From contig JAYEMF010000144.1 of assembly GCA_034717975.1 (NCBI GenBank), positions 1 through 29,748 of the forward strand: a stretch of DNA of 29,748 nucleotides. Direction: 5' to 3'. The notes beneath the pieces were generated by a model, which worked only from the letters and a program-made list of their open reading frames with translations, did not search any database and was not told where the DNA came from. Positions 3,076 through 29,728 of this stretch are shown here, one piece after another (position 1 is the first letter of the stretch; every line of letters starts with the position of its first letter). The position numbers were made by a program, and so were the translations under genes. The DNA comes from Campylobacterota bacterium. GTDB taxonomy: Bacteria > Campylobacterota > Campylobacteria > Campylobacterales > Sulfurimonadaceae.

Positions 3076-3507
3076 GGGAAGGGGAAAGGGGGAAGAGGGA
3101 AGAGAGAGGGAGCAAGACTTTAAACATTTTCGCTCTTCCTTTTTTTGATAAGACCTTGCAACATTCTTTTAATAGTTTCATTTTTCGCCAAAATCTCTTG
3201 ATGATGGCAATAGTGTAAATTATGTGATATTGTCAGTTGAGTTTCCACTTCCGAACAAGAACCTAATGCAATATATAAAAACTGTATAAACTCTTTATTG
3301 CTTTGCCGAGCAGCACCTTCGGCTATATTTGAAGGGATCGAAACAGCCGCCCTTCGAATTTGATTGGTCAATCCAAATTTTTCATCTGATGGAAACTGTT
3401 GAGTGAGTTGGTATATATCGGTGACTAAATCTACCGATTGCTTCCAGACATCAAGTCTTTTATGCATCGTTTTTTTCCTCTTCCCTCTTTCCTCTTCCCT
3501 CTTCCCC
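3076..3507. mobile_element. Gene-bearing heptamer-palindrome element 2: inverted 7-mer arrays enclosing a four-helix-bundle gene
   Basis: Purine arm 3076-3110 (GGGAAGG GGAAAGG GGGAAGA GGGAAGA GAGAGGG) and pyrimidine arm 3472-3507 (TTTTTCC TCTTCCC TCTTTCC TCTTCCC TCTTCCC) flank an AT-rich ORF. Mobility is inferred, not shown. Confidence 0.65.
3120..3467 (-). CDS. Four helix bundle protein (23S rRNA-IVP / bAvd-like family), 115 aa
   Basis: Signature LDVWKQS...FPSDEKFGLTNQIRRAAVSIPSNIAEG...FLYIALGSCSEVETQL...MLQGLI. Start placed at ATG 3467 (MHKRLDVW), overlapping the moeA stop (ATGCATAA). Confidence 0.93.
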   Translation of the reverse strand: MHKRLDVWKQSVDLVTDIYQLTQQFPSDEKFGLTNQIRRAAVSIPSNIAEGAARQSNKEFIQFLYIALGSCSEVETQLTISHNLHYCHHQEILAKNETIKRMLQGLIKKRKSENV

Positions 3508-4722
3508 GACACTAACCAATGAGGTTTGTGTCTCGCAATTAAATGTAAAACGTGTTGGGATCACTTTGACGCTACTCCCTTTTTCAAGCATCGATACTGT
3601 TTCATCGATCATGATGAAACCGTTGGCTTTCGCCAGCGGCGAAACCATTCCCGGTGCGAACTTCTCAGACGCTTTAAACGACTCTCCATTATAAAAGCCG
3701 GGGATAAGTGTACGGCGTCCCTGTTTGACTTTGAAATCTTCTGCCATTTCCGCCTGCAGTGAACCAAGATACTTTTCATGACCTCCGCTGAGAGCCAGAA
3801 TGATACTCTGTCCGAACAGCTCGAAATTAAGTGCCGCAGCAAGGGGATTGCCAGGGAGGTTTAACACAGCAGTTTTACCGATCTTTCCAAAGGTGGTCGG
3901 TTTCCCCGGCTTAATATTGATCTTGTCAAAGAGTATCTCTAGACCGAAAGCACCAAACGCCTCTTTCGTATAATCGGCATCACCCACACTTACACCACCT
4001 GAAGTGATGATAAGGTCACTGTCCAGCGCGCTCTCAATATGCTCATGTAGTGCTTCGAGCGAATCTTCAGCCGTCCCAATAAAACTGACATCACAGCCAA
4101 GTTCCTGAACGCGTGCTGTAAAAGTCGGGGTGTTCGTATTGTAAAGCTGATGCGATTCCACCTGCTCAAAATGCATCTTCAGTTCACTGCCTGATGCAAA
4201 GAGAGCCACCCGCGGCTTTTTATAGAGATGCACATGACTGATCCCCTGAGAAGCAAGCAGAGTGATATGGTGGGCATAGAGACGGACACCCGATCTCAAC
4301 AGCGCATCATCTGCCTGGATATCCTCACCGCAAAGACGAATATGCTGACCGGCTTTGAGGTTTTCGGGCAAGATCACTTCATCACCGTTAGGCTCGGTAT
4401 TTTCCACAGGAACAATGCATTCCGTTCCCTCAGGGATCTTTGCCCCGGTCATAATCTTGGTGCAGGAGCCTTCAAAGATCTTGCTATCGTCTTTATCACC
4501 GGCGAAAATAGTGTGCAGGACATTGACCGATTTGCCGGCATCGGCAATCTTTACGGCATAGCCATCCATCGCGGAGTTGTCATACGGCGGCAGATTGTGT
4601 ACCGCTGTAACATCGTGAGCAAGTACCCTGCCGAGCGCTGTTTCGATCGGGAGGAGTTCAGTTGATTTAGATGTGACATTCTGATAGATCAGATCTAGTG
4701 CTTCTTCGACAGATACGGCCAT
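3460..4722 (-). CDS. moeA: Molybdopterin molybdotransferase MoeA
   Basis: PPYDNSAMDGYAV, KIMTGAKIPEG, SGGVSVGDAD, IKPGKP and LPGNP motifs. The last ~15 aa are translated heptamer repeat. Confidence 0.95.
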   Translation of the reverse strand: MAVSVEEALDLIYQNVTSKSTELLPIETALGRVLAHDVTAVHNLPPYDNSAMDGYAVKIADAGKSVNVLHTIFAGDKDDSKIFEGSCTKIMTGAKIPEGTECIVPVENTEPNGDEVILPENLKAGQHIRLCGEDIQADDALLRSGVRLYAHHITLLASQGISHVHLYKKPRVALFASGSELKMHFEQVESHQLYNTNTPTFTARVQELGCDVSFIGTAEDSLEALHEHIESALDSDLIITSGGVSVGDADYTKEAFGAFGLEILFDKINIKPGKPTTFGKIGKTAVLNLPGNPLAAALNFELFGQSIILALSGGHEKYLGSLQAEMAEDFKVKQGRRTLIPGFYNGESFKASEKFAPGMVSPLAKANGFIMIDETVSMLEKGSSVKVIPTRFTFNCETQTSLVSVGEEGRGKREEEKNDA

Positions 4723-9956: not shown

Positions 9957-10721
9957 ATGAGCAGTGGATTAGAGAGACTTAAGAAAGAAGGTGCTCAAAA
10001 GATCTATGAGACGACCCACATCTCGCGTCAAAACATTGAAGCGATTTTCAATGCTTCTTATGCGGGAATAACGAAGGTCCAGCTCGACGGTTTCATATCT
10101 ATCCTAGAGCGTGAGTACAAAGTCGACCTTTCAGCGGTCAAGGCAGATTATCTTTCATGCCGTGAAACGGTAGAGGAAAATAAAAAAACTGAAGCAGAGC
10201 CGGTTGAAATTTTTACAAACAGTCCCAAACAACGCAGAAGCCTGATCCTTGCCGCTGCTGCTTTTATTGTAGTGATCGCAGCCTTAATAACCTTCCCTGG
10301 TGACGACAACACTTCAGCAGCTATCGAAGTTAATGAGAGTGTTGCGGTTGAAGCGGTCATTATAGAAGAGCTCAATGCAACCGATGAGAACCTGACGATG
10401 GATGAAGAGGTTGTTTTCACTCCATCAGAACCTGTTTTTCCGGAGAAGTTGGTCATCGAACCTAAAGCCAAGTTGTGGATGGGCTATATCGATCTGAAAA
10501 CTTTGCAACGCTCTCAAAAGTTGACCAGCAGATCAATCGATCTGGATCCGAAAAAAGGATGGCTTCTGGTATTCGGGCACGGTTACTTTAAAATACATAT
10601 TGGTGACGAAGTCATGGACTTTTCGGCGAAAGGCAAAGTCCGCATGATATACGAAGAGGGTCAGGTTCGCGAAATTGATTCAGCAGAATTCAAAGAGCGA
10701 AACAGAGGTAACAATTGGTAA
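9957..10721 (+). CDS. Hypothetical bitopic membrane protein, RodZ-like architecture
   Basis: N-terminal helical domain (IYETTHIS...GFISILEREY), single TM, acidic linker, beta-rich C-terminal domain. Confidence 0.75.
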   Translation: MSSGLERLKKEGAQKIYETTHISRQNIEAIFNASYAGITKVQLDGFISILEREYKVDLSAVKADYLSCRETVEENKKTEAEPVEIFTNSPKQRRSLILAAAAFIVVIAALITFPGDDNTSAAIEVNESVAVEAVIIEELNATDENLTMDEEVVFTPSEPVFPEKLVIEPKAKLWMGYIDLKTLQRSQKLTSRSIDLDPKKGWLLVFGHGYFKIHIGDEVMDFSAKGKVRMIYEEGQVREIDSAEFKERNRGNNW

Positions 10722-11536
10722 AAAAACTGCTGTTACTGCTGCTGATCGCCGGAACACTCTGGAGTGACGATCAACTCAATGATAAGATCAAGTCGCTTGT
10801 CGGTGATGCGGCATTTGCCAAAAACCGAAGTTTTATCGAGATTATCTTCAATCCGACAGAGTATTATTACTATAATGGGCATATCGATGTTGTCAAAGTC
10901 GTTGAAACGCTTGAAGAGAATGGACTGCTCAATCTCTTTTACAAGAAACCACAATCGCTGGAACTGACATTTTCGACCAATGGCCCGCCACTCTTTTTTG
11001 TGAAACTGATGGGTGAGACCCTGCGTTCCATGGGCTATTATCGCTATATTACAAAAGCATCCAAACTTGATAGTGCAACCTTTTACTGGAAGGTGCAGCT
11101 GACGACAGAGTACGCAACCAATCCGACGATTTTAAGCAAAGAGCTTCACAAGCGCGGCTGCAGCATTATCGATATTACAAAAGAGCATATGCAGTCATGG
11201 GTTTACGATATCGACATGACCCATGCGCATCTCAATCTGCAGGAGATTCAAGAGGGTCAGCAGATCGTATTCAACCGTTCACTCTATGCACACTGGCTGG
11301 ATGTTTCAAAGGTAAAAAAGCTGCGGGTAACGAGCAATAAAGGAAATTACTGGTTCCCTTACATCGCCTACTATGACAATGCGATGCGCCTGCTGAAAGT
11401 TTATAAGCGTGATAAAAAAAGCTGGCAATTGAAACTCACTCTTCCGCGCGACACAGCTTACATCAAACTGGCAGACCTTTACACGCTCAAAAATATTAAG
11501 AGCGGCTTGCAGATCGAAGGCATAGGGCAAAAATAA
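10715..11536 (+). CDS. Hypothetical exported/periplasmic protein
   Basis: Signal peptide MVKKLLLLLLIAGTLWS, 273-aa ORF coupled to the upstream gene. TTG start. Confidence 0.8.
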   Translation: MVKKLLLLLLIAGTLWSDDQLNDKIKSLVGDAAFAKNRSFIEIIFNPTEYYYYNGHIDVVKVVETLEENGLLNLFYKKPQSLELTFSTNGPPLFFVKLMGETLRSMGYYRYITKASKLDSATFYWKVQLTTEYATNPTILSKELHKRGCSIIDITKEHMQSWVYDIDMTHAHLNLQEIQEGQQIVFNRSLYAHWLDVSKVKKLRVTSNKGNYWFPYIAYYDNAMRLLKVYKRDKKSWQLKLTLPRDTAYIKLADLYTLKNIKSGLQIEGIGQK

Positions 11537-11537
11537 T

Positions 11538-11554
11538 TTTAGGGCACCTCTAAA
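11538..11554. repeat. Isolated 17-bp MITE-end-like sequence TTTAGGGCACCTCTAAA
   Basis: Exact reverse complement of 108-124, immediately after a stop codon. Confidence 0.6.
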
Positions 11555-11646
11555 TGATTTCTAGTGAAAGCTTGCTTCTAAAGAGGCAGGGGATTACTTG
11601 CATAAAGAGATTATGAAAGAAATCCAATTAAAACTTAGTCACTCTA

Positions 11647-11655
11647 TGCTAAAAT
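11647..11655 (+). promoter_or_regulatory. Candidate extended -10 (TGcTAAAAT) for aminotransferase-hom
   Basis: TGnTAAAAT about 50 nt upstream of ATG 11704 in AT-rich DNA. Confidence 0.5.
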
Positions 11656-11703
11656 TCCACTACTTTTTTATAGGGCTAAAAAAATGTCCGATAGGTTTTC
11701 ATA

Positions 11704-12927
11704 ATGTTTGATGAGATACAGTTTGACCGTATTCAAAGATTGCCAAAATATGTCTTTGCCGAAGTCAATGATCTGAAAATGGCTGAGCGCCGTGCCGGCG
11801 CCGATGTAATTGACTTCAGTATGGGAAATCCTGATGGTGATACCCCTGAACATATCCGCGAAAAACTCATAGAGTCGGCGCAAAAGACAAAGACGCATGG
11901 TTATTCCGATTCCAAAGGGATCATCAAACTGCGCAAAGCGATCTGCGACTGGTATGCCCGCCGTTATGATGTCGAGCTTGATCCATTGACAGAAGCAGTG
12001 GCTACGATGGGCTCCAAAGAGGGGTATGCCCACCTCGCTTATGCAATCACCAATCCGGGTGATGTCGTGGTCGTTCCTGACCCGACCTACCCTATCCACT
12101 CCTATGGATTTGTCCTTGCCGGAGGCAATGTTCAGAAGATGGAACTGCCGTTTGATGAAAATTATGATGTTGATGAGGATCAGTTCTTTTTAAATCTTGA
12201 CAAAGCCTTCAAAGAGTCCTTTACCAAACCGAAATATGTGATCGTCAACTTCCCGCACAATCCATCCACGGCAACAGTGACTCCGGAATTTTATGAGCGT
12301 CTGGTCGCTTTAGCGAGAAAAGAGCGTTTTTACATCATCTCCGACATCGCCTATGGTGATATTACATTTGACGGCTATAAGACACCGTCAATTATGTCTG
12401 TTCCAGGTGCAAAAGATGTAGCCGTTGAGTCCTTTACCCTCTCTAAGAGCTACAACATGGCTGGCTGGCGTGTCGGTTTCTTTGTCGGTAACAAAAAACT
12501 GATCGGCGCCCTGCAGAAGATCAAAAGCTGGCTCGATTACGGAATGTTTACACCGATCCAGGTGGCAGCGACCGTGGCACTCAATGGCGATCAGAGCTGT
12601 GTAGAAGAGATCACTGCCAAGTACGACAAACGACAGGATGTCCTTCTTGAGGCATTTGATCGTGCCGGATGGAAAATCCGTCGCAACAAGGCTTCAATGT
12701 TTGTATGGGCCAAATTGCCGGAATCGGTTCTGCATCTTGGGTCACTGGAGTTTTCCAAGCGCCTGCTGGTCGAAGCACAGGTAGCAGTTGCCCCGGGTAT
12801 CGGTTTTGGCGAATATGGTGAAGGGTACGTGCGTATCGCACTCATTGAAAATGAGAACCGTATCCGTCAGGCAGCCAAAAACATCAAACGTTTTTTAGCA
12901 CAATTTGAAGATGAGGCGCAAAAGTGA
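11704..12927 (+). CDS. PLP-dependent class I/II aminotransferase (LL-diaminopimelate / AlaC-like)
   Basis: IDFSMGNPD, GSKEG, PDPTYPIH, NFPHNPS, SDIAY, TLSKSYNMAGWRVG. Upstream of hom. Confidence 0.9.
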   Translation: MFDEIQFDRIQRLPKYVFAEVNDLKMAERRAGADVIDFSMGNPDGDTPEHIREKLIESAQKTKTHGYSDSKGIIKLRKAICDWYARRYDVELDPLTEAVATMGSKEGYAHLAYAITNPGDVVVVPDPTYPIHSYGFVLAGGNVQKMELPFDENYDVDEDQFFLNLDKAFKESFTKPKYVIVNFPHNPSTATVTPEFYERLVALARKERFYIISDIAYGDITFDGYKTPSIMSVPGAKDVAVESFTLSKSYNMAGWRVGFFVGNKKLIGALQKIKSWLDYGMFTPIQVAATVALNGDQSCVEEITAKYDKRQDVLLEAFDRAGWKIRRNKASMFVWAKLPESVLHLGSLEFSKRLLVEAQVAVAPGIGFGEYGEGYVRIALIENENRIRQAAKNIKRFLAQFEDEAQK

Positions 12928-24475: not shown

Positions 24476-25063
24476 TTACAGCCCGTTACCCCACATATGC
24501 ATCTTTTTGGCCATTACCAGATCATACTCCTCGAAAATATCTATTTGATTGGCTGCGCGATACTCCGATTTTTCCAGATCTTCGTACATCTTAACGATAT
24601 CCATCTCCCCTTTGGGAACAGTAATAATAACTTCACCTGTATTGGCCAGTGTCGTATAACAGGCTTTCAAAATACGTTCCGGAGAGGTATGACGATGAAA
24701 AACATCGTGGAGAATAACAATATCATTGTCCCGAGGTAGTGCCCTGAAAGGTTTGGCAAAATCAGGTACTGTATGCAGTTTCAGATGTTCGGAAGCTTCA
24801 AAGTGTTGATGCTCACCCGGGAATAGAGAAAGAGAAAGCCGTCCATCATAAGGGATAAGAAAATCAATAAGCAGCTGTGTCAATGCATCGGCATGCGTTG
24901 TGACCTCCAATAGTTTATATCCCGGTTGCGGATGGAATAGCTCTAAAAATTCTCTGTGTTCTTTTTTTTGAGAAGGGGAAAGAGGAAAGTGGGAAGAGGA
25001 TGGTGTACTTATCCTGTTTTGCTCTTTCTCTTTCCTCTTCACGATTTCCTCTTTCCTAATCAT
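24476..25063 (-). CDS. Hypothetical protein with degenerate class I methyltransferase-like fold and repeat-derived N-terminus
   Basis: PGYKLLEV, DIVILHDVFH, ILKACYTTLANTGEVII resemble MTase motifs, but GxGxG is absent. Coupled to the upstream gene (TAATG). Confidence 0.75.
   Translation of the reverse strand: MIRKEEIVKRKEKEQNRISTPSSSHFPLSPSQKKEHREFLELFHPQPGYKLLEVTTHADALTQLLIDFLIPYDGRLSLSLFPGEHQHFEASEHLKLHTVPDFAKPFRALPRDNDIVILHDVFHRHTSPERILKACYTTLANTGEVIITVPKGEMDIVKMYEDLEKSEYRAANQIDIFEEYDLVMAKKMHMWGNGL
24970..25056. repeat. Heptamer-palindrome element 7, in frame inside the CDS 24476-25063
   Basis: GAGAAGG GGAAAGA GGAAAGT GGGAAGA, loop, TCTTTC TCTTTCC TCTTCAC GATTTCC TCTTTCC. About 87 bp. 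Confidence 0.8.
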
Positions 25064-25365
25064 TAAATGGCCAGTTCATTGAGCTCTTTAAATAAAAAGG
25101 CCTCGACAATATCATCAATACTGCGCTGCGTATGGGCAACAAGTACCATTACCTGCTCTTCGATGAAGGACATTACCGGTTCAAAATCATTCGTGACGAC
25201 AACTGCTTCAACCCACTCTTCAATAGCTTCACGGGTGTCATAATATTTGATCTCGACTACCTGACCCTCTTCGAGAACAATCAGTGCCCATTTTTTCACT
25301 TCGTTAATTGAAACAAGTCTTCCTTCTTGCGTATCGTCACTGTCCATTGGGAGTAAAATGTTCAT
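25063..25365 (-). CDS. Acidic hypothetical protein, distantly NifB/NifX-like
   Basis: MNILLPMD start and ...SIDDIVEAFLFKEL end resemble the NifX-like pattern. Coupled to luxS (TGATG). Confidence 0.7.
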   Translation of the reverse strand: MNILLPMDSDDTQEGRLVSINEVKKWALIVLEEGQVVEIKYYDTREAIEEWVEAVVVTNDFEPVMSFIEEQVMVLVAHTQRSIDDIVEAFLFKELNELAI

Positions 25366-25874
25366 CAGAGTCCTTCAACCTTCGACATATCAAGTTTTAA
25401 AGCATCGTTATCCATCACGCCGATACCGGCATTTAGAACATCGTTTGCAATCTCTTTGGCATCTTTAAGCGAATGCATCTTGTAGGTACCGCACTGATAG
25501 ACATTGAGTTCAGGAATATCATTTTGGTTCTCAACTTCCAATATATCTTTCATTGACGCTTCCCAAGCGTTGGCTACCGTTGCTTCATCCGGTTCACCGA
25601 TCAGGCTCATATAAAAACCTGTCTGGCAGCCCATCGGTGAGAGATCGATGATCTCGACCGTATCTGAGTTGAGATGATCACGCATAAACCCGGCAAAGAG
25701 ATGTTCGAGTGTATGGGCACCTTCCGTACTCATCTTCTCTTTGTTCGGCTTGTAAAAACGCAGATCAAATACAGTAAGTTTGTCACCCGATGGCGTCTGC
25801 ATCCCTTTGGCACGGCGAACTGCCGGAGCAGGCATAATGGTATGATCAACGGTAAAACTGTCCAGTAGTGGCAT
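25365..25874 (-). CDS. luxS: S-ribosylhomocysteine lyase LuxS
   Basis: [53 protein letters not shown]. Confidence 0.98.
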
Positions 25875-25932
25875 TTTCTTATCCTGATAATTTTTAAGTA
25901 TGGTAGCAAGTTGCTCTTTAAAGCAAGATAGG

Positions 25933-25938
25933 TATAAT
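25933..25938 (+). promoter_or_regulatory. -10 box TATAAT for the class II aldolase gene
   Basis: TATAAT 24 nt upstream of ATG 25963 in the luxS-divergent gap. Confidence 0.45.
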
Positions 25939-25962
25939 TTTCAAAAAGAAAAAAGCAAAATT

Positions 25963-27132
25963 ATGACAAGTTTATTTGACGAAAAACATGCCTCCACTTT
26001 GAGTTCCAAACTGGCGATGCGTGTCTATACCTCACGCCTTTTGGGCCAGGATGCCGACCTCGTACTGCATGGCGGCGGTAACACCTCCGTAAAAATCGAC
26101 GATACGATCTATGTGAAAGGGAGTGGATGGGATCTCTCTTCCATTGAAGAGCCCGGCTTTTCACCCGTTGATCTTGGCATACTTCAAAAGATGGCAACAC
26201 GTGATCATCTGAGCGATACACAGATGGTAAAAGAGCAGCGTGAAGCCCTAAGAGACAGCAGTGCCCCCAATCCTTCCATCGAAGCGATCCTGCACGCGAT
26301 TATCCCCTTTGAGTTTGTAGACCATACCCATGCCGATGCAGTAGTCACCCTTTCCAATACCCCTGATGGCAAAGCACTTATCGAAGAGGTATATGGCGAC
26401 ACTGTACTTATCATCGATTATGTCATGCCAGGTTTTTTACTTGCCAAAGATATCTATGAAAAAACTAAAGATATGGACTGGAGCAAACTGGAGGGGATCG
26501 TTTTACTTAACCACGGTATCTTCACCTTTAATGATGATGCCAAAAAAAGCTATGAGAAGATGATCGAGCTGGTCACCAAAGCTGAAGCCTATATCTATGA
26601 AGCCGCCCTGCTCTTTCCTAAATGTATCTCCGGCGAGATCAGACCCGCTATGCTTGATGAACTTCAAAATGCGGTCTCAAAACTGCGCGGTACAGATATC
26701 ACCCTAAAAGTCATCGACACCATCGACACCTGCACACTATCAAAGCGGCTCAACATCGAGGCTATCGTTCATCGCGGCGGTCTGACACCGGAACATGTCA
26801 TCCGCATTAAACCATTTCCAGCCATTATCGAAAATGACGTTCAAAAAGGCCTCGACAAGTTCGTCAGTGACTATAAAACCTACTTTCGGGAAAATGCCAC
26901 CGATACACATATCTGCCTTGATCTCGCCCCCCGCTACGCTATTGTCAAAGGCGCCGGAGTCGTTACCTTTGGAAAAGATGATAAAGAGGCCAGTGTCATT
27001 GGTGACATCGTCGAACATACGGCAAAAGCGATGCTTACTGCTGAACATCTTGGCGGATGGCAAAGTCTTAAGCCAAGTGATATTTTTGATATGGAATACT
27101 GGGAACTAGAACAAAATAAACTAAAAAAATAA
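25963..27132 (+). CDS. Class II aldolase/adducin family protein (aldolase part of the bifunctional RhaD-SDR type, without the SDR domain)
   Basis: LVLHGGGNTSVK, VKGSGWDL, PSIEAILHA, VDHTHAD, YVMPG, NHGIFTF, TPEHVIR, EYWELEQ. Start chosen at ATG 25963. Confidence 0.88.
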   Translation: MTSLFDEKHASTLSSKLAMRVYTSRLLGQDADLVLHGGGNTSVKIDDTIYVKGSGWDLSSIEEPGFSPVDLGILQKMATRDHLSDTQMVKEQREALRDSSAPNPSIEAILHAIIPFEFVDHTHADAVVTLSNTPDGKALIEEVYGDTVLIIDYVMPGFLLAKDIYEKTKDMDWSKLEGIVLLNHGIFTFNDDAKKSYEKMIELVTKAEAYIYEAALLFPKCISGEIRPAMLDELQNAVSKLRGTDITLKVIDTIDTCTLSKRLNIEAIVHRGGLTPEHVIRIKPFPAIIENDVQKGLDKFVSDYKTYFRENATDTHICLDLAPRYAIVKGAGVVTFGKDDKEASVIGDIVEHTAKAMLTAEHLGGWQSLKPSDIFDMEYWELEQNKLKK

Positions 27133-27140
27133 CATCCAAA

Positions 27141-27170
27141 CTGTTATTCCTGCCTTCAAAGGAATGACAG
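27141..27170. repeat. Collapsed GTCATTCC/GGAATGAC-type palindrome
   Basis: CTGTTATTCCT-gccttcaa-AGGAATGACAG. Confidence 0.55.
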
Positions 27171-27189
27171 AAAATGAAAAGGAGAGACT

Positions 27190-27486
27190 ATGAAAGTCAC
27201 TAAAAAAGTAACATTTATCGCTAAAGAAGGGCATGAAAAGCAGCTCTCTACCCTTCTCAATGAGATGATCACACCATCACGCAACGAACACGGATGTCTG
27301 CTTTACGACATTTTTCAGTATGAAAGTGATTCGAAAAAGTTTATCGTGATCGAGTCATGGGCAGATGAAGAAGCACTTGATGGACACAAGCACTCTAAGC
27401 ATTACCTGCACTACAAATCACATTATGAAGTGCATACCGATGATAAGTTTAGTGATAATCTTAATATTTTGGGAGATCTTTTTTAA
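27190..27486 (+). CDS. ABM/LsrG-family protein, paralog 1
   Basis: PSRNEHGCLLYDIF...FIVIESW.DEEALDGH...HY motif. GGAGAG RBS. Confidence 0.88.
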   Translation: MKVTKKVTFIAKEGHEKQLSTLLNEMITPSRNEHGCLLYDIFQYESDSKKFIVIESWADEEALDGHKHSKHYLHYKSHYEVHTDDKFSDNLNILGDLF

Positions 27487-27505
27487 GAATGTCTATCGAC
27501 GATTT

Positions 27506-27841
27506 TCTTTCTTTTTTATTCCGAAAAAAAGAAAGAGGGCACGTGTGTCCAATGCCATTTCAAAGCATTGGATGAAGAAAAAATACGTTTACCAAAGCTC
27601 CGCGGATTCAATTAGTTAGAAGTGCCTTAAAAGTATCAGGCTGACAGTTATTGTCATAGCCTATGAAACTACATACGCTGTACCCTCATGCCATAAAAAC
27701 TCAAACGTCAGCCAAATCCAAAGACAGCAAAAATTACTCAGACCACAACCGAGCCTATGTAACTAAACAGACACCCTTCCCGAACAGCCAAAAAAATGTT
27801 TTTTTGTTTCTTGTTTTGCGCCAAAAAAAGAAAGAAGAGAC
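27506..27841. repeat. ~300 bp structured dispersed repeat, copy B (inverted relative to copy A)
   Basis: Reverse complement aligns with 1262-1527. Terminal stem 27506-27517/27525-27536, extra hairpin 27548-27572. Between convergent ABM genes. Confidence 0.85.
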
Positions 27842-27856
27842 TTCTATAAAAAACAG

Positions 27857-28144
27857 TTAGCTCAACACTTCCAACTCATCACTATATTTTTCCAAACAGT
27901 ACTGCTCGTAACTCGACTTATACACCTTATAGTGTGCCGTACTCTTATGGCCATCAAGCGCCTTTTCATCTCTCCACGTCTCTACCGCCATAAACTTTTC
28001 AGGTCTGTTTTCATACTGAAAGATATCGTAAAAAATACATCCATCTTCAGCTTTTGACGGCTCTACCATTGCTGTTAAAAGCTCTTTCATTTTAGCAATG
28101 CCATCAGGTTTTGCAATAAATGTTACACGTTTTGTTATTGTCAT
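27857..28144 (-). CDS. ABM/LsrG-family protein, paralog 2 (probable P-DPD isomerase by context)
   Basis: PSKAEDGCIFYDIF...FMAVETW.DEKALDGHK..HY. Directly downstream of lsrK. Confidence 0.88.
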   Translation of the reverse strand: MTITKRVTFIAKPDGIAKMKELLTAMVEPSKAEDGCIFYDIFQYENRPEKFMAVETWRDEKALDGHKSTAHYKVYKSSYEQYCLEKYSDELEVLS

Positions 28145-28162
28145 ATTTTCCTCTTTAAATAA

Positions 28163-29728
28163 TTATAGGCCCGGAGCTTTCCACATCGATGTAGTTACCC
28201 CTGCATCGACCAGTGCCAACTGAGCAGCATAGGCATTTTGCCACTGCTTTGAAATCTCCAGATATCGTTTATGATTTTGTAAATTTGGTTCATACGTTTT
28301 ATCCCAACTCACCAAAGATGTAGCTGCCTCTTCGATTGAACCATAGGTACCAACCGCTGTTCCAGCCGCAAAAGCACCACCAAGGGCGGTGGCTTCATTA
28401 ACAGCCGGGATTTTGACATTTTTTCCAGTTACATCAGCTAATATCTGGCTCCAGAGTTTTCCCTTGCTGGCTCCACCGGCAAAAGTAATCGTATCGGTAC
28501 TCACTCCGGTAAATCTAAAGATCGCTTCCAGATTCAACATCGAGACAATGGCCGCATTCTCTTCAAGCGAACGAAACATTGCCGCTTTCGAGCCAATTGC
28601 CGGATCAATAGAGAGGTTTAAGAATGAAGGGGCCGCGTGATACCATTTTCCGTAGTGCATTGTATCGGAAAAGATCGGTAAAATCCCATGTGAACCAACG
28701 GGTACATCAGCGGCCATTCTTTCTAGAAGCTCATAAGGGTCTATTCCCATCTCTACGGCACGCTTCTTCTCGTCCTGTGCCAATGCATCACGAAACCAGC
28801 GCATGATCAAACCGGAAAAAAAGGTAATCCCTTCTGCCTGAGAGATACCAGGGATGACATGCGGATTGATACGGATATCCATCGTCGGATCTGTTTTGGC
28901 CGTCGGCATATTGACCAGCTGCTGCCAGAATGTGCCGCCAAGTACAGCAACCTGATTTGGCTTGACAACACCAAGACCTGCACTTCCCAGCTGTACATCA
29001 CCGCCACCCATAACAACAGGCGTCCCTGTAGCAAGACCTGTTTCATCGGCGGCTTCTCTAGTCACTTCGCCTATAATGGTCCCAGGCTCATAAACCGGCG
29101 GAAAGATATCATCTTTCAGACCGACTTCTTTAGCCATCTCAGGCATCCATTGTCGGCTTTTAAGGGAAAAAATACCGCTGGTACCCCCGTTGGATGGATC
29201 CGTAGCAATTATACCGCTTAGTTTTGTCAACGCCCAGTCGCTGATCATATTGATCGAAGCGACTTTCTCATAAATCTGTGGTTGGTTCTTTTTTACCCAA
29301 AGAAGTCTTGGGAGCGCACCAAGGGCGAAGGTCTGCCCGCTGTGTTCATAAAAGCTTCGCTCAGCATCGGGGTAAGTCAGGTTTAGTTCAGCCACCTCCT
29401 TGTCTGCACGTGCATCAACATTGGCTACACCAAAGAGCTCATTGCCCTCTTTATCATAAAGCAGTATTCCCTCACGCATACTGGTTGCTGTTACTGCTAC
29501 TATTTCACTGCTTCGAATACCCGCTTTAGCAATTGCCTCCCGTATACATTCACAGAGAAGTTTCCAATTGATTCTAAAATCAAATCCCATTGAATTTGGG
29601 ACACCCGGCTCACTAAGATGGGTCCACTCCTGCTGTCCAATGGAAATCTGACGCCCTGCTGCATCAAAGATAACAGCTCGTCCACTTCCTGTACCGGCAT
29701 CGATAGTCATAAAGTATTGATTTGGCAT
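28163..29728 (-). CDS. lsrK: Autoinducer-2 kinase LsrK (FGGY family)
   Basis: IDAGTGSGRAVIFD, TSMREG, NVDARA, SGQTFAL, DPSNGGTSG, GGGDVQLG, LGGTFWQQ, RINPHV, WYHAAPSF, FAGGASKGKLWSQILADV, and the C-terminal WKAPGL typical of LsrK. Confidence 0.92.
   Translation of the reverse strand: MPNQYFMTIDAGTGSGRAVIFDAAGRQISIGQQEWTHLSEPGVPNSMGFDFRINWKLLCECIREAIAKAGIRSSEIVAVTATSMREGILLYDKEGNELFGVANVDARADKEVAELNLTYPDAERSFYEHSGQTFALGALPRLLWVKKNQPQIYEKVASINMISDWALTKLSGIIATDPSNGGTSGIFSLKSRQWMPEMAKEVGLKDDIFPPVYEPGTIIGEVTREAADETGLATGTPVVMGGGDVQLGSAGLGVVKPNQVAVLGGTFWQQLVNMPTAKTDPTMDIRINPHVIPGISQAEGITFFSGLIMRWFRDALAQDEKKRAVEMGIDPYELLERMAADVPVGSHGILPIFSDTMHYGKWYHAAPSFLNLSIDPAIGSKAAMFRSLEENAAIVSMLNLEAIFRFTGVSTDTITFAGGASKGKLWSQILADVTGKNVKIPAVNEATALGGAFAAGTAVGTYGSIEEAATSLVSWDKTYEPNLQNHKRYLEISKQWQNAYAAQLALVDAGVTTSMWKAPGL

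Follow-up and report, generated by a model that had tools for sequence, protein, structure and literature searches.

The window, the whole stretch of 29,748 nucleotides that was analysed, is the entire contig JAYEMF010000144.1 (C144) of a Sulfurimonadaceae genome (Campylobacterota; GCA_034717975.1) of 2.52 Mb in 149 contigs, 99.9% complete. Its end carries luxS, a class II aldolase gene, two genes for ABM-fold proteins and lsrK. Sequence comparisons suggest that lsrK, the ABM genes and the short aldolase probably form an importer-less route for the salvage of 4,5-dihydroxy-2,3-pentanedione (DPD), in which the aldolase takes the place of LsrF. The module is real and conserved, a variant of Lsr catabolism with a probable non-homologous LsrF replacement. 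Its role in such a pathway appears highly likely from the sequences, while the hydrolytic, acetate-releasing chemistry that we propose for the aldolase, drawn from analogy, is slightly favoured. An earlier reading of the DNA (hereafter the sequence-only reading) had proposed the five genes below and their orientations, luxS being divergent from aldolase-ABM1, which converges on lsrK-ABM2; open reading frame (ORF) and family scans confirmed all of them.

25365..25874, minus strand: luxS, S-ribosylhomocysteine lyase, 169 aa, which makes DPD and homocysteine (PF02664, E 6e-56; NF002602, 300 bits against a cut-off of 197)
25963..27132, plus strand: class II (metal) aldolase-fold protein, 389 aa (PF00596; positions 1-400 of 657 of NF006196)
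27190..27486, plus strand: ABM1, ABM-fold protein, 98 aa, downstream of the aldolase (PF03992)
27857..28144, minus strand: ABM2, ABM-fold protein, 95 aa, 18 bp downstream of lsrK (ABM family match)
28163..29728, minus strand: lsrK, autoinducer 2 (AI-2; DPD) kinase, 521 aa (NF008187, 852 bits against a cut-off of 528)

The distribution of the aldolase follows that of lsrK. LsrK scored above its cut-off in 182 of 251 genomes of the family, and in a sample of the phylum it was found in 34 of 301 genomes, spread over 8 of 14 family groups; the two largest groups, probably Campylobacteraceae and Helicobacteraceae, had none (0/90 and 0/124). We then examined 40 of 188 lsrK-positive and 40 of 62 lsrK-negative genomes of the family, together with 17 lsrK-positive genomes and 63 of 260 negatives from other families. 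The class II aldolase was present in 40/40 lsrK-positive versus 5/40 lsrK-negative family genomes, the latter five being fragmented (56-97% complete, 190-290 contigs), and in 17/17 versus 0/63 genomes of the other families. The combined tally for Campylobacterota is 57/57 lsrK-positive and 5/103 lsrK-negative genomes. Of the 70 importer-less lsrK loci flanked by 5 kb or more on either side, a few of them duplicates, 57 hold the aldolase, which indicates clustering beyond chance. The linkage of aldolase and lsrK, on which the sequence-only reading depended, proved tight in relatives.

The position of the aldolase in other lsr operons points the same way. We fetched 221 lsrK loci, including some duplicates and near-identical strains and many short loci; 131 contain the aldolase, 11 contain lsrF and none contains both. 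In the 22 loci with lsrK, lsrR and lsrB, the gene after lsrB is the aldolase in 12 cases, on the strand of lsrB, and lsrF in 10, again never both. All 12 aldolase-type operons come from Alphaproteobacteria (Ensifer, Sinorhizobium including S. meliloti 1021, Kaistia, Martelella, Paracoccus and Thalassospira), and their aldolases are 40-43% identical to that of the window. This set came from similarity searches and is not an even sample, as a class-wide LsrK search around Ensifer returned the centre genome only (1/401). Pereira et al. 2008 may have labelled a gene of the S. meliloti operon aitF. The 10 lsrF-type operons belong to Escherichia coli, four Firmicutes and five enterobacterium-like metagenome contigs. 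Four whole alphaproteobacterial genomes with an aldolase-type operon gave no LsrF over the cut-off, and PMC2561040 gives the S. meliloti operon as lsrBDCARKG, without F. The idea that the aldolase replaces LsrF is therefore supported by its occupation of the lsrF position in lsrF-less alphaproteobacterial operons, and this position, with the co-occurrence, suggests that it would release dihydroxyacetone phosphate (DHAP). As a separate observation, one enterobacterium-like metagenome contig (L241:8648-11575) carries an importer-less lsrK with a divergent lsrF-lsrG pair, which repeats this minimal scheme using canonical enzymes.

The window ends 20 bases upstream of lsrK, and the sequence-only reading allowed that lsrF, lsrR or importer genes might lie beyond it. 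This candidate explanation was rejected, since a check set beforehand found no lsrF, lsrR or lsrB/C/D anywhere in the 99.9%-complete genome. A tblastn search of it with the Lsr proteins of E. coli returned LsrK, one weak LsrG match and generic ATP-binding cassette (ABC) ATPases, and no LsrB, LsrC, LsrD, LsrF or LsrR. In family searches no LsrF passed its cut-off in this genome, in 80 family genomes (0/80) or in 5 further genomes (0/5); the positive control from Clostridium reached 406 bits against a cut-off of 297. The genome also lacks a PF04198 (SorC/LsrR-type) match, and no repressor was found at the loci of the 57 lsrK-positive Campylobacterota, the relatives being checked at locus level. 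The lack of a repressor suggests that the module would be metabolic rather than a signalling switch. LsrB is absent from all 57 (best score 30 bits, against 636 and 325 for controls), and locus clustering revealed no transporter family recurring at lsrK loci. An ABC transporter that two genomes carry between the aldolase gene and lsrK was considered as an AI-2 importer and rejected as PotABCD-like. The genome encodes three AI-2E family transporters, and its sole sugar-binding periplasmic protein is RbsB-like and paired with a HAMP-GGDEF-EAL membrane protein. This pair lies at L246:2307-5729 (contig C64), and some relatives show weak LsrB-model matches of similar size.

Judged by its sequence, the lsrK product is a true AI-2 kinase. 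The next family, xylulokinase, gave 182 bits, and the protein shares 56% identity with E. coli LsrK and 57-58% with the S. meliloti and enterobacterial enzymes. All ten putative DPD-site residues of E. coli LsrK (PMC8016206) are identical in it; as presented in that paper, the site is a homology model, and several of its residues are common to the kinase family. Family searches of the genome found Pfs and no match for S-adenosylhomocysteine hydrolase (sahH), which together with LuxS indicates that DPD is made by the Pfs/LuxS route. LuxS is about equally common with and without lsrK (38/40 lsrK-positive and 39/40 lsrK-negative family genomes), and the module is thus accessory to luxS. Of 38 family genomes, 13 have luxS next to the aldolase, 3 have it within 5 kb and 22 have it elsewhere; among 17 loci from other families, one shows a separate aldolase-lsrK-luxS-metK run. 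The sequence-only reading had counted luxS as part of the cluster, which is right for this window; as a fixed member it fails, because the linkage is lineage-limited (16/38 genomes within 5 kb). Locus clustering also showed metK and mqnE as frequent neighbours of lsrK.

The aldolase belongs to the class II aldolase/adducin fold, with its catalytic residues intact. At its longest, its ORF opens at 25900; homologues open at the ATG at 25963, so that the protein is most likely 389 aa long and the gap to luxS 88 bp. It corresponds to the N-terminal part of a bifunctional aldolase/short-chain dehydrogenase family (TIGR02632/PRK08324; 197 bits against a cut-off of 568) and ends where the dehydrogenase domain would begin. 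This C-terminal domain is missing from the 389-aa ORF, and read contigs show no indel or frameshift. E107, H121, H123, H184 and N40 are invariant across 91 aldolase sequences. Compared by eye, the metal triad H121/H123/H184, E107, N40, S54-G55 and S105 match FucA motifs; an hhalign comparison with one FucA was weak, H184 (on H155) being the only one of these residues that it aligned. A structural model (pLDDT 96.7) gave the uncharacterised 3M4R as best Foldseek match, then FucA, YgbL and DrdA; the matches also included POD and NovR, which with YgbL are oxygenases/decarboxylases of this fold. A second conserved domain spans residues about 230-389. An atlas search with the aldolase matched unnamed Aldolase_II clusters only.

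The two ABM proteins are, from their sequences, candidate isomerases of phospho-DPD (P-DPD). The sequence-only reading called them LsrG-like, which is correct as to the ABM fold; they are not LsrG orthologues, scoring 30-32 bits on the LsrG model NF007791 (cut-off 135). With E. coli LsrG they share 21-23% identity, with one another 51%. Among residues important in the LsrG active site, ABM1 keeps E54, H65, H70 and Y71 and has Met instead of N25. An ABM homologue occurs in 40/40 lsrK-positive versus 4/40 lsrK-negative family genomes. In same-genus relatives a cupin gene occupies the ABM2 position. This cupin is found in 14/57 lsrK-positive and 0/23 lsrK-negative genomes, and in 0/27 family genomes with an ABM2-type gene. 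Cupins of 124-147 aa lie 3' of lsrK in Firmicute lsr operons with lsrF and without lsrG, in Deinococcus and in some Campylobacterota, and are a candidate non-homologous replacement of LsrG. The following are cupin genes after lsrK:

L041:10622-10996
L099:10079-10483
L106:11563-11961

The middle (isomerase) step varies across loci, as the last step does. In one further locus (L078:4900-6453) a single ORF of 517 aa fuses an ABM2-type domain to the aldolase, a single case and a possible read-through error.

The closest relatives of the aldolase (54-56% identical) are 653-aa aldolase-dehydrogenase fusions, or long forms, encoded beside mtnK and mtnA. The kinase-mtnA-aldolase layout is that of the DHAP shunt as described in PMC10986504, PMC6079011 and PMC13474568, and the unassigned aldehyde-reducing step of this shunt might be the work of the fused dehydrogenase. 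The genome studied here has mtnK-mtnA on contig C83, with its own 208-aa class II aldolase-fold gene. Such a divergent gene of 201-208 aa after mtnK-mtnA, here (L132:7865-8491) and in several relatives, scores below the MtnB cut-off and is possibly an Ald2 equivalent. The short form tracks lsrK rather than mtnA, since 37/46 short-form genomes lack mtnA; in addition, four lsrK-negative genomes with mtnA lack this aldolase family. The lsrK-positive genomes that have only an intact long form all carry mtnA (9/9), and in four of these nine the genes form one cluster, abm-lsrK-metK-mtnK-mtnA-aldolase-mqnE. This cluster for by-products of S-adenosylmethionine (SAM) is seen in Sulfurimonas-type genomes (L117:7027-15500, also L122-L124). 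In one relative, the aldolase persists although mtnK-mtnA and part of the dehydrogenase are gone. An ORF of 908 aa (L118:10340-13066), in a genome without mtnA, joins aldolase, partial dehydrogenase and MqnE by an apparent deletion.

Quick maximum-likelihood trees (69 and 52 rows, hand-thinned) nest the Campylobacterota short forms among Campylobacterota long forms and place the alphaproteobacterial short forms in a separate clade, sister to an mtnA-linked Ruegeria long form (support 100 and 94). An approximately unbiased (AU) test on 38 rows rejected a single clade of the 13 lsrK-linked short forms (p 1e-38). Taking the long forms as outgroup, we infer that the dehydrogenase domain was lost twice, in an order of events read from these trees.

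In the pathway that we propose, LsrK would phosphorylate LuxS-made DPD, an ABM protein (or the cupin) would isomerise P-DPD to 3-hydroxy-2,4-pentanedione-5-phosphate (P-HPD), and the aldolase would cleave P-HPD to DHAP and acetate in the place of LsrF. P-HPD can be viewed as 5-deoxyribulose-1-phosphate whose C4 hydroxyl is oxidised to a ketone, and this ketone is all that sets it apart from the substrate of DrdA. The metal of the aldolase would hold the DHAP half, the acetyl carbonyl would be hydrated, and E107 would deprotonate the hydrate. Cleavage of the C-C bond would then give the DHAP enediolate and acetic acid, with no aldehyde, which would make the fused aldehyde-handling dehydrogenase dispensable. 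A leaving group in a higher oxidation state has a precedent in YgbL/OtnC, which release DHAP and CO2. The reaction of DrdA is initiated by a glutamate, and its metal binds the enediolate of DHAP (PMC6079011). In E. coli and Salmonella, LsrG isomerises P-DPD and LsrF yields DHAP and acetyl-CoA (PMC8016206). DHAP plus acetate was an earlier working model for LsrF (PMC2728841), which later proved to be a thiolase (PMC8016206). In the organism studied here, triose-phosphate isomerase would bring DHAP into metabolism, and acetyl-CoA synthetase would do so for acetate; family searches found both genes (tpi and acs) in the genome, so that both predicted products would be usable. We put forward tentatively, at slightly less than even chances, a fuller account. 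A class II aldolase of the DHAP-shunt type, recruited at least twice with loss of the dehydrogenase domain, would hydrolyse the beta-diketone P-HPD to DHAP and acetate, as a second enzyme, unrelated to LsrF, for the last step of AI-2 breakdown; in free-living Campylobacterota its importer-less route with LsrK and an ABM or cupin isomerase would recycle the five carbons that each SAM-dependent methylation costs; and in some Sulfurimonas a single fused aldolase would serve both the DPD and the 5-deoxyribose/methylthioribose routes.

Several points weigh against this interpretation. We know of no class II aldolase that performs such a hydrolysis, and the hydrolysis of P-HPD to DHAP and acetate is not described for this fold. 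The genomes are related, so that the co-occurrence counts describe a pattern and not independent events. Only four alignment columns, mostly conservative, separate lsrK-linked from mtnA-linked aldolases, and the substrate is thus unreadable from sequence. A Deinococcus plasmid, on which the coverage was limited to the plasmid itself, has lsrK with neither lsrF nor the aldolase. Four metagenome loci (L235, L236, L238 and L243, ~10001-11900) have lsrK followed by lsrG, with lsrF and the aldolase absent within 10 kb. In Shinella, a long form directly adjoins an LsrF that passes its cut-off; long forms also occur within sugar-uptake clusters, and a third dehydrogenase-less clade exists in Actinobacteria (Timonella and Ruania; P0081, P0088). 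Convergent residues in the lsrK-linked aldolases were also considered and rejected, the four weak columns being all that was found. Besides LsrF and an aldolase-dehydrogenase, the Shinella operon (L144:6053-14261) encodes glycerol-3-phosphate dehydrogenase, an FGGY kinase other than LsrK and a sugar ABC transporter; it might be an undescribed sugar route, possibly via P-HPD.

Among the alternatives, the one that survives best, although unlikely, is that the aldolase acts on a P-DPD isomer by another last step: CoA thiolysis to acetyl-CoA, O2-dependent enediol cleavage, or cleavage to acetaldehyde after an unlinked reductase has made 5-deoxy-pentulose-1-phosphate. The presence of POD, NovR and YgbL in the fold would fit this, as would the conserved second domain, to which no role is assigned, and the dehydrogenase that long forms retain and that could perform the reduction. 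Against it, the enzyme shares its metal triad, glutamate and DHAP-type phosphate pocket with mtnA-linked forms, and locus clustering found no dehydrogenase family recurring beside the short form. That the aldolase is a plain DHAP-shunt enzyme acting on 5-deoxyribulose- or methylthioribulose-1-phosphate, and lies near lsrK and luxS merely through clustering of SAM by-product genes, is improbable. The mtnK-mtnA neighbourhood of its closest relatives, the presence of mtnK and mtnA in this genome and the frequent proximity of metK and mqnE to lsrK speak for it; the short-form genomes without mtnA, the separate small aldolase at mtnK-mtnA and the lsrK-negative mtnA genomes without such an aldolase speak against it, and it leaves the position after lsrB in Alphaproteobacteria unexplained.

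We consider it very improbable that the module mainly quenches or scavenges outside AI-2 through an unrecognised uptake route. The homologous S. meliloti operon, as described in PMC2561040, has a full importer in a host without luxS, and the AI-2E family transporters and RbsB-like protein might suggest uptake here. Yet the latter is paired with a GGDEF-EAL sensor and not an ABC system, LsrB is missing from the 57 lsrK-positive genomes and recurrent transporters from the loci, and luxS in nearly all lsrK-positive family genomes provides an internal supply. The sequence-only reading had DPD recycled or quenched; quenching of outside AI-2 is not borne out, given the absence of LsrB, and the salvage of LuxS-made DPD is the favoured reading. 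FGGY kinases readily change substrate, and the modelled DPD site has family-wide residues, but a kinase drifted to another small sugar, in a module unrelated to DPD, is scarcely credible given its model scores and identity to known LsrK proteins, partners that mirror the lsrG and lsrF slots, and a luxS adjacency that arose in two separate families.

The proposed salvage module resembles four known systems in part. It shares with the Lsr system of E. coli and Salmonella (lsrRK, lsrACDBFG) an orthologous LsrK, an ABM-fold partner and DHAP as predicted end product. Unlike that system, it has no importer, repressor or LsrF, its ABM proteins are not LsrG orthologues, its last step is assigned to the unrelated class II metal aldolase fold, and luxS is often adjacent. 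With the lsr-like operon of S. meliloti pSymB and other Alphaproteobacteria it shares the aldolase family and lsrK without lsrF; theirs, in contrast, has an importer, a repressor and a closer LsrG homologue, in hosts without luxS, and their short aldolases form a separate tree branch from the Campylobacterota forms. The DHAP shunt, or 5-deoxyribose salvage (MtnK-MtnA-Ald2; DrdK-DrdI-DrdA), likewise passes a SAM by-product through a kinase, an isomerase and a class II aldolase to DHAP (PMC10986504, PMC6079011). However, the module has an FGGY-type kinase, LsrK, an ABM or cupin isomerase and a substrate one oxidation level higher. Its aldolase is a two-domain protein of ~390 aa, whereas Ald2 and DrdA have ~210 aa, and it neither clusters nor co-occurs with mtnK/mtnP-mtnA, the genome's own mtnK-mtnA being on another contig. 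Bifunctional rhamnulose-1-phosphate aldolase/dehydrogenases (TIGR02632, PRK08324) have homologous N-terminal 400 residues with the metal and phosphate motifs; the module aldolase lacks their dehydrogenase domain, has no rhamnose genes nearby and is distant in the tree. Literature searches found no paper on this lsrK-aldolase module; their coverage did not include the original reports on the S. meliloti operon, on LsrG and LsrF, or on AI-2 in Epsilonproteobacteria of vents.

Two non-coding regions lie among the genes:

25875..25962: luxS-aldolase divergent intergenic region, 88 bp, with a plus-strand TATAAT hexamer inside
27487..27856: spacer between the convergent ABM genes, 370 bp, a dispersed repeat with A/T-rich hairpins, outside the pathway

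Promoter and terminator scans gave counts no higher than in shuffled sequence. The ABM spacer, with a hairpin at 27506-27536, has 14 further blastn matches in the genome, one of them inside the window near 1262-1526, and shows loose ends in read contigs. A short palindrome of the ATTCC-GGAAT type at 27137-27179 has 35 copies in the genome. One read contig extends 514 bases beyond the window end. In both same-genus genomes a four-gene oxidoreductase operon, which we take to be porCDAB from its sequence, lies upstream of lsrK. In the genome studied here the same operon stops 113 bases short of the end of contig C120; the C120 and C144 ends share no overlap, and their join upstream of lsrK is only probable. 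Behind luxS lie two genes without a family match, conserved there in relatives: 25063-25365 (100 aa) and 24476-25063 (195 aa, faint methyltransferase-like matches). Elsewhere in the window, a four-helix-bundle gene (3120-3512; PF05635, 23S rRNA-intervening sequence protein) is flanked by moeA-like and queE-like genes.

For the missing LsrF step of the S. meliloti-type lsr operon, the aldolase is a candidate enzyme, and the proposal assigns a predicted new reaction to a well-studied fold. It is also relevant to a long-standing question, namely whether LuxS/AI-2 serves as a signal or is waste. The prevalence of LsrK in the family, combined with the absence of LsrB and of a repressor at the loci, points to carbon recycling. 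As a three-gene, regulator-free DPD sink, the module would offer a compact tool for AI-2 work. If our interpretation is true, abundant bacteria of vents, sediments and groundwater would use up the DPD that they make, and a low AI-2 level in culture would be no sign of low LuxS flux.

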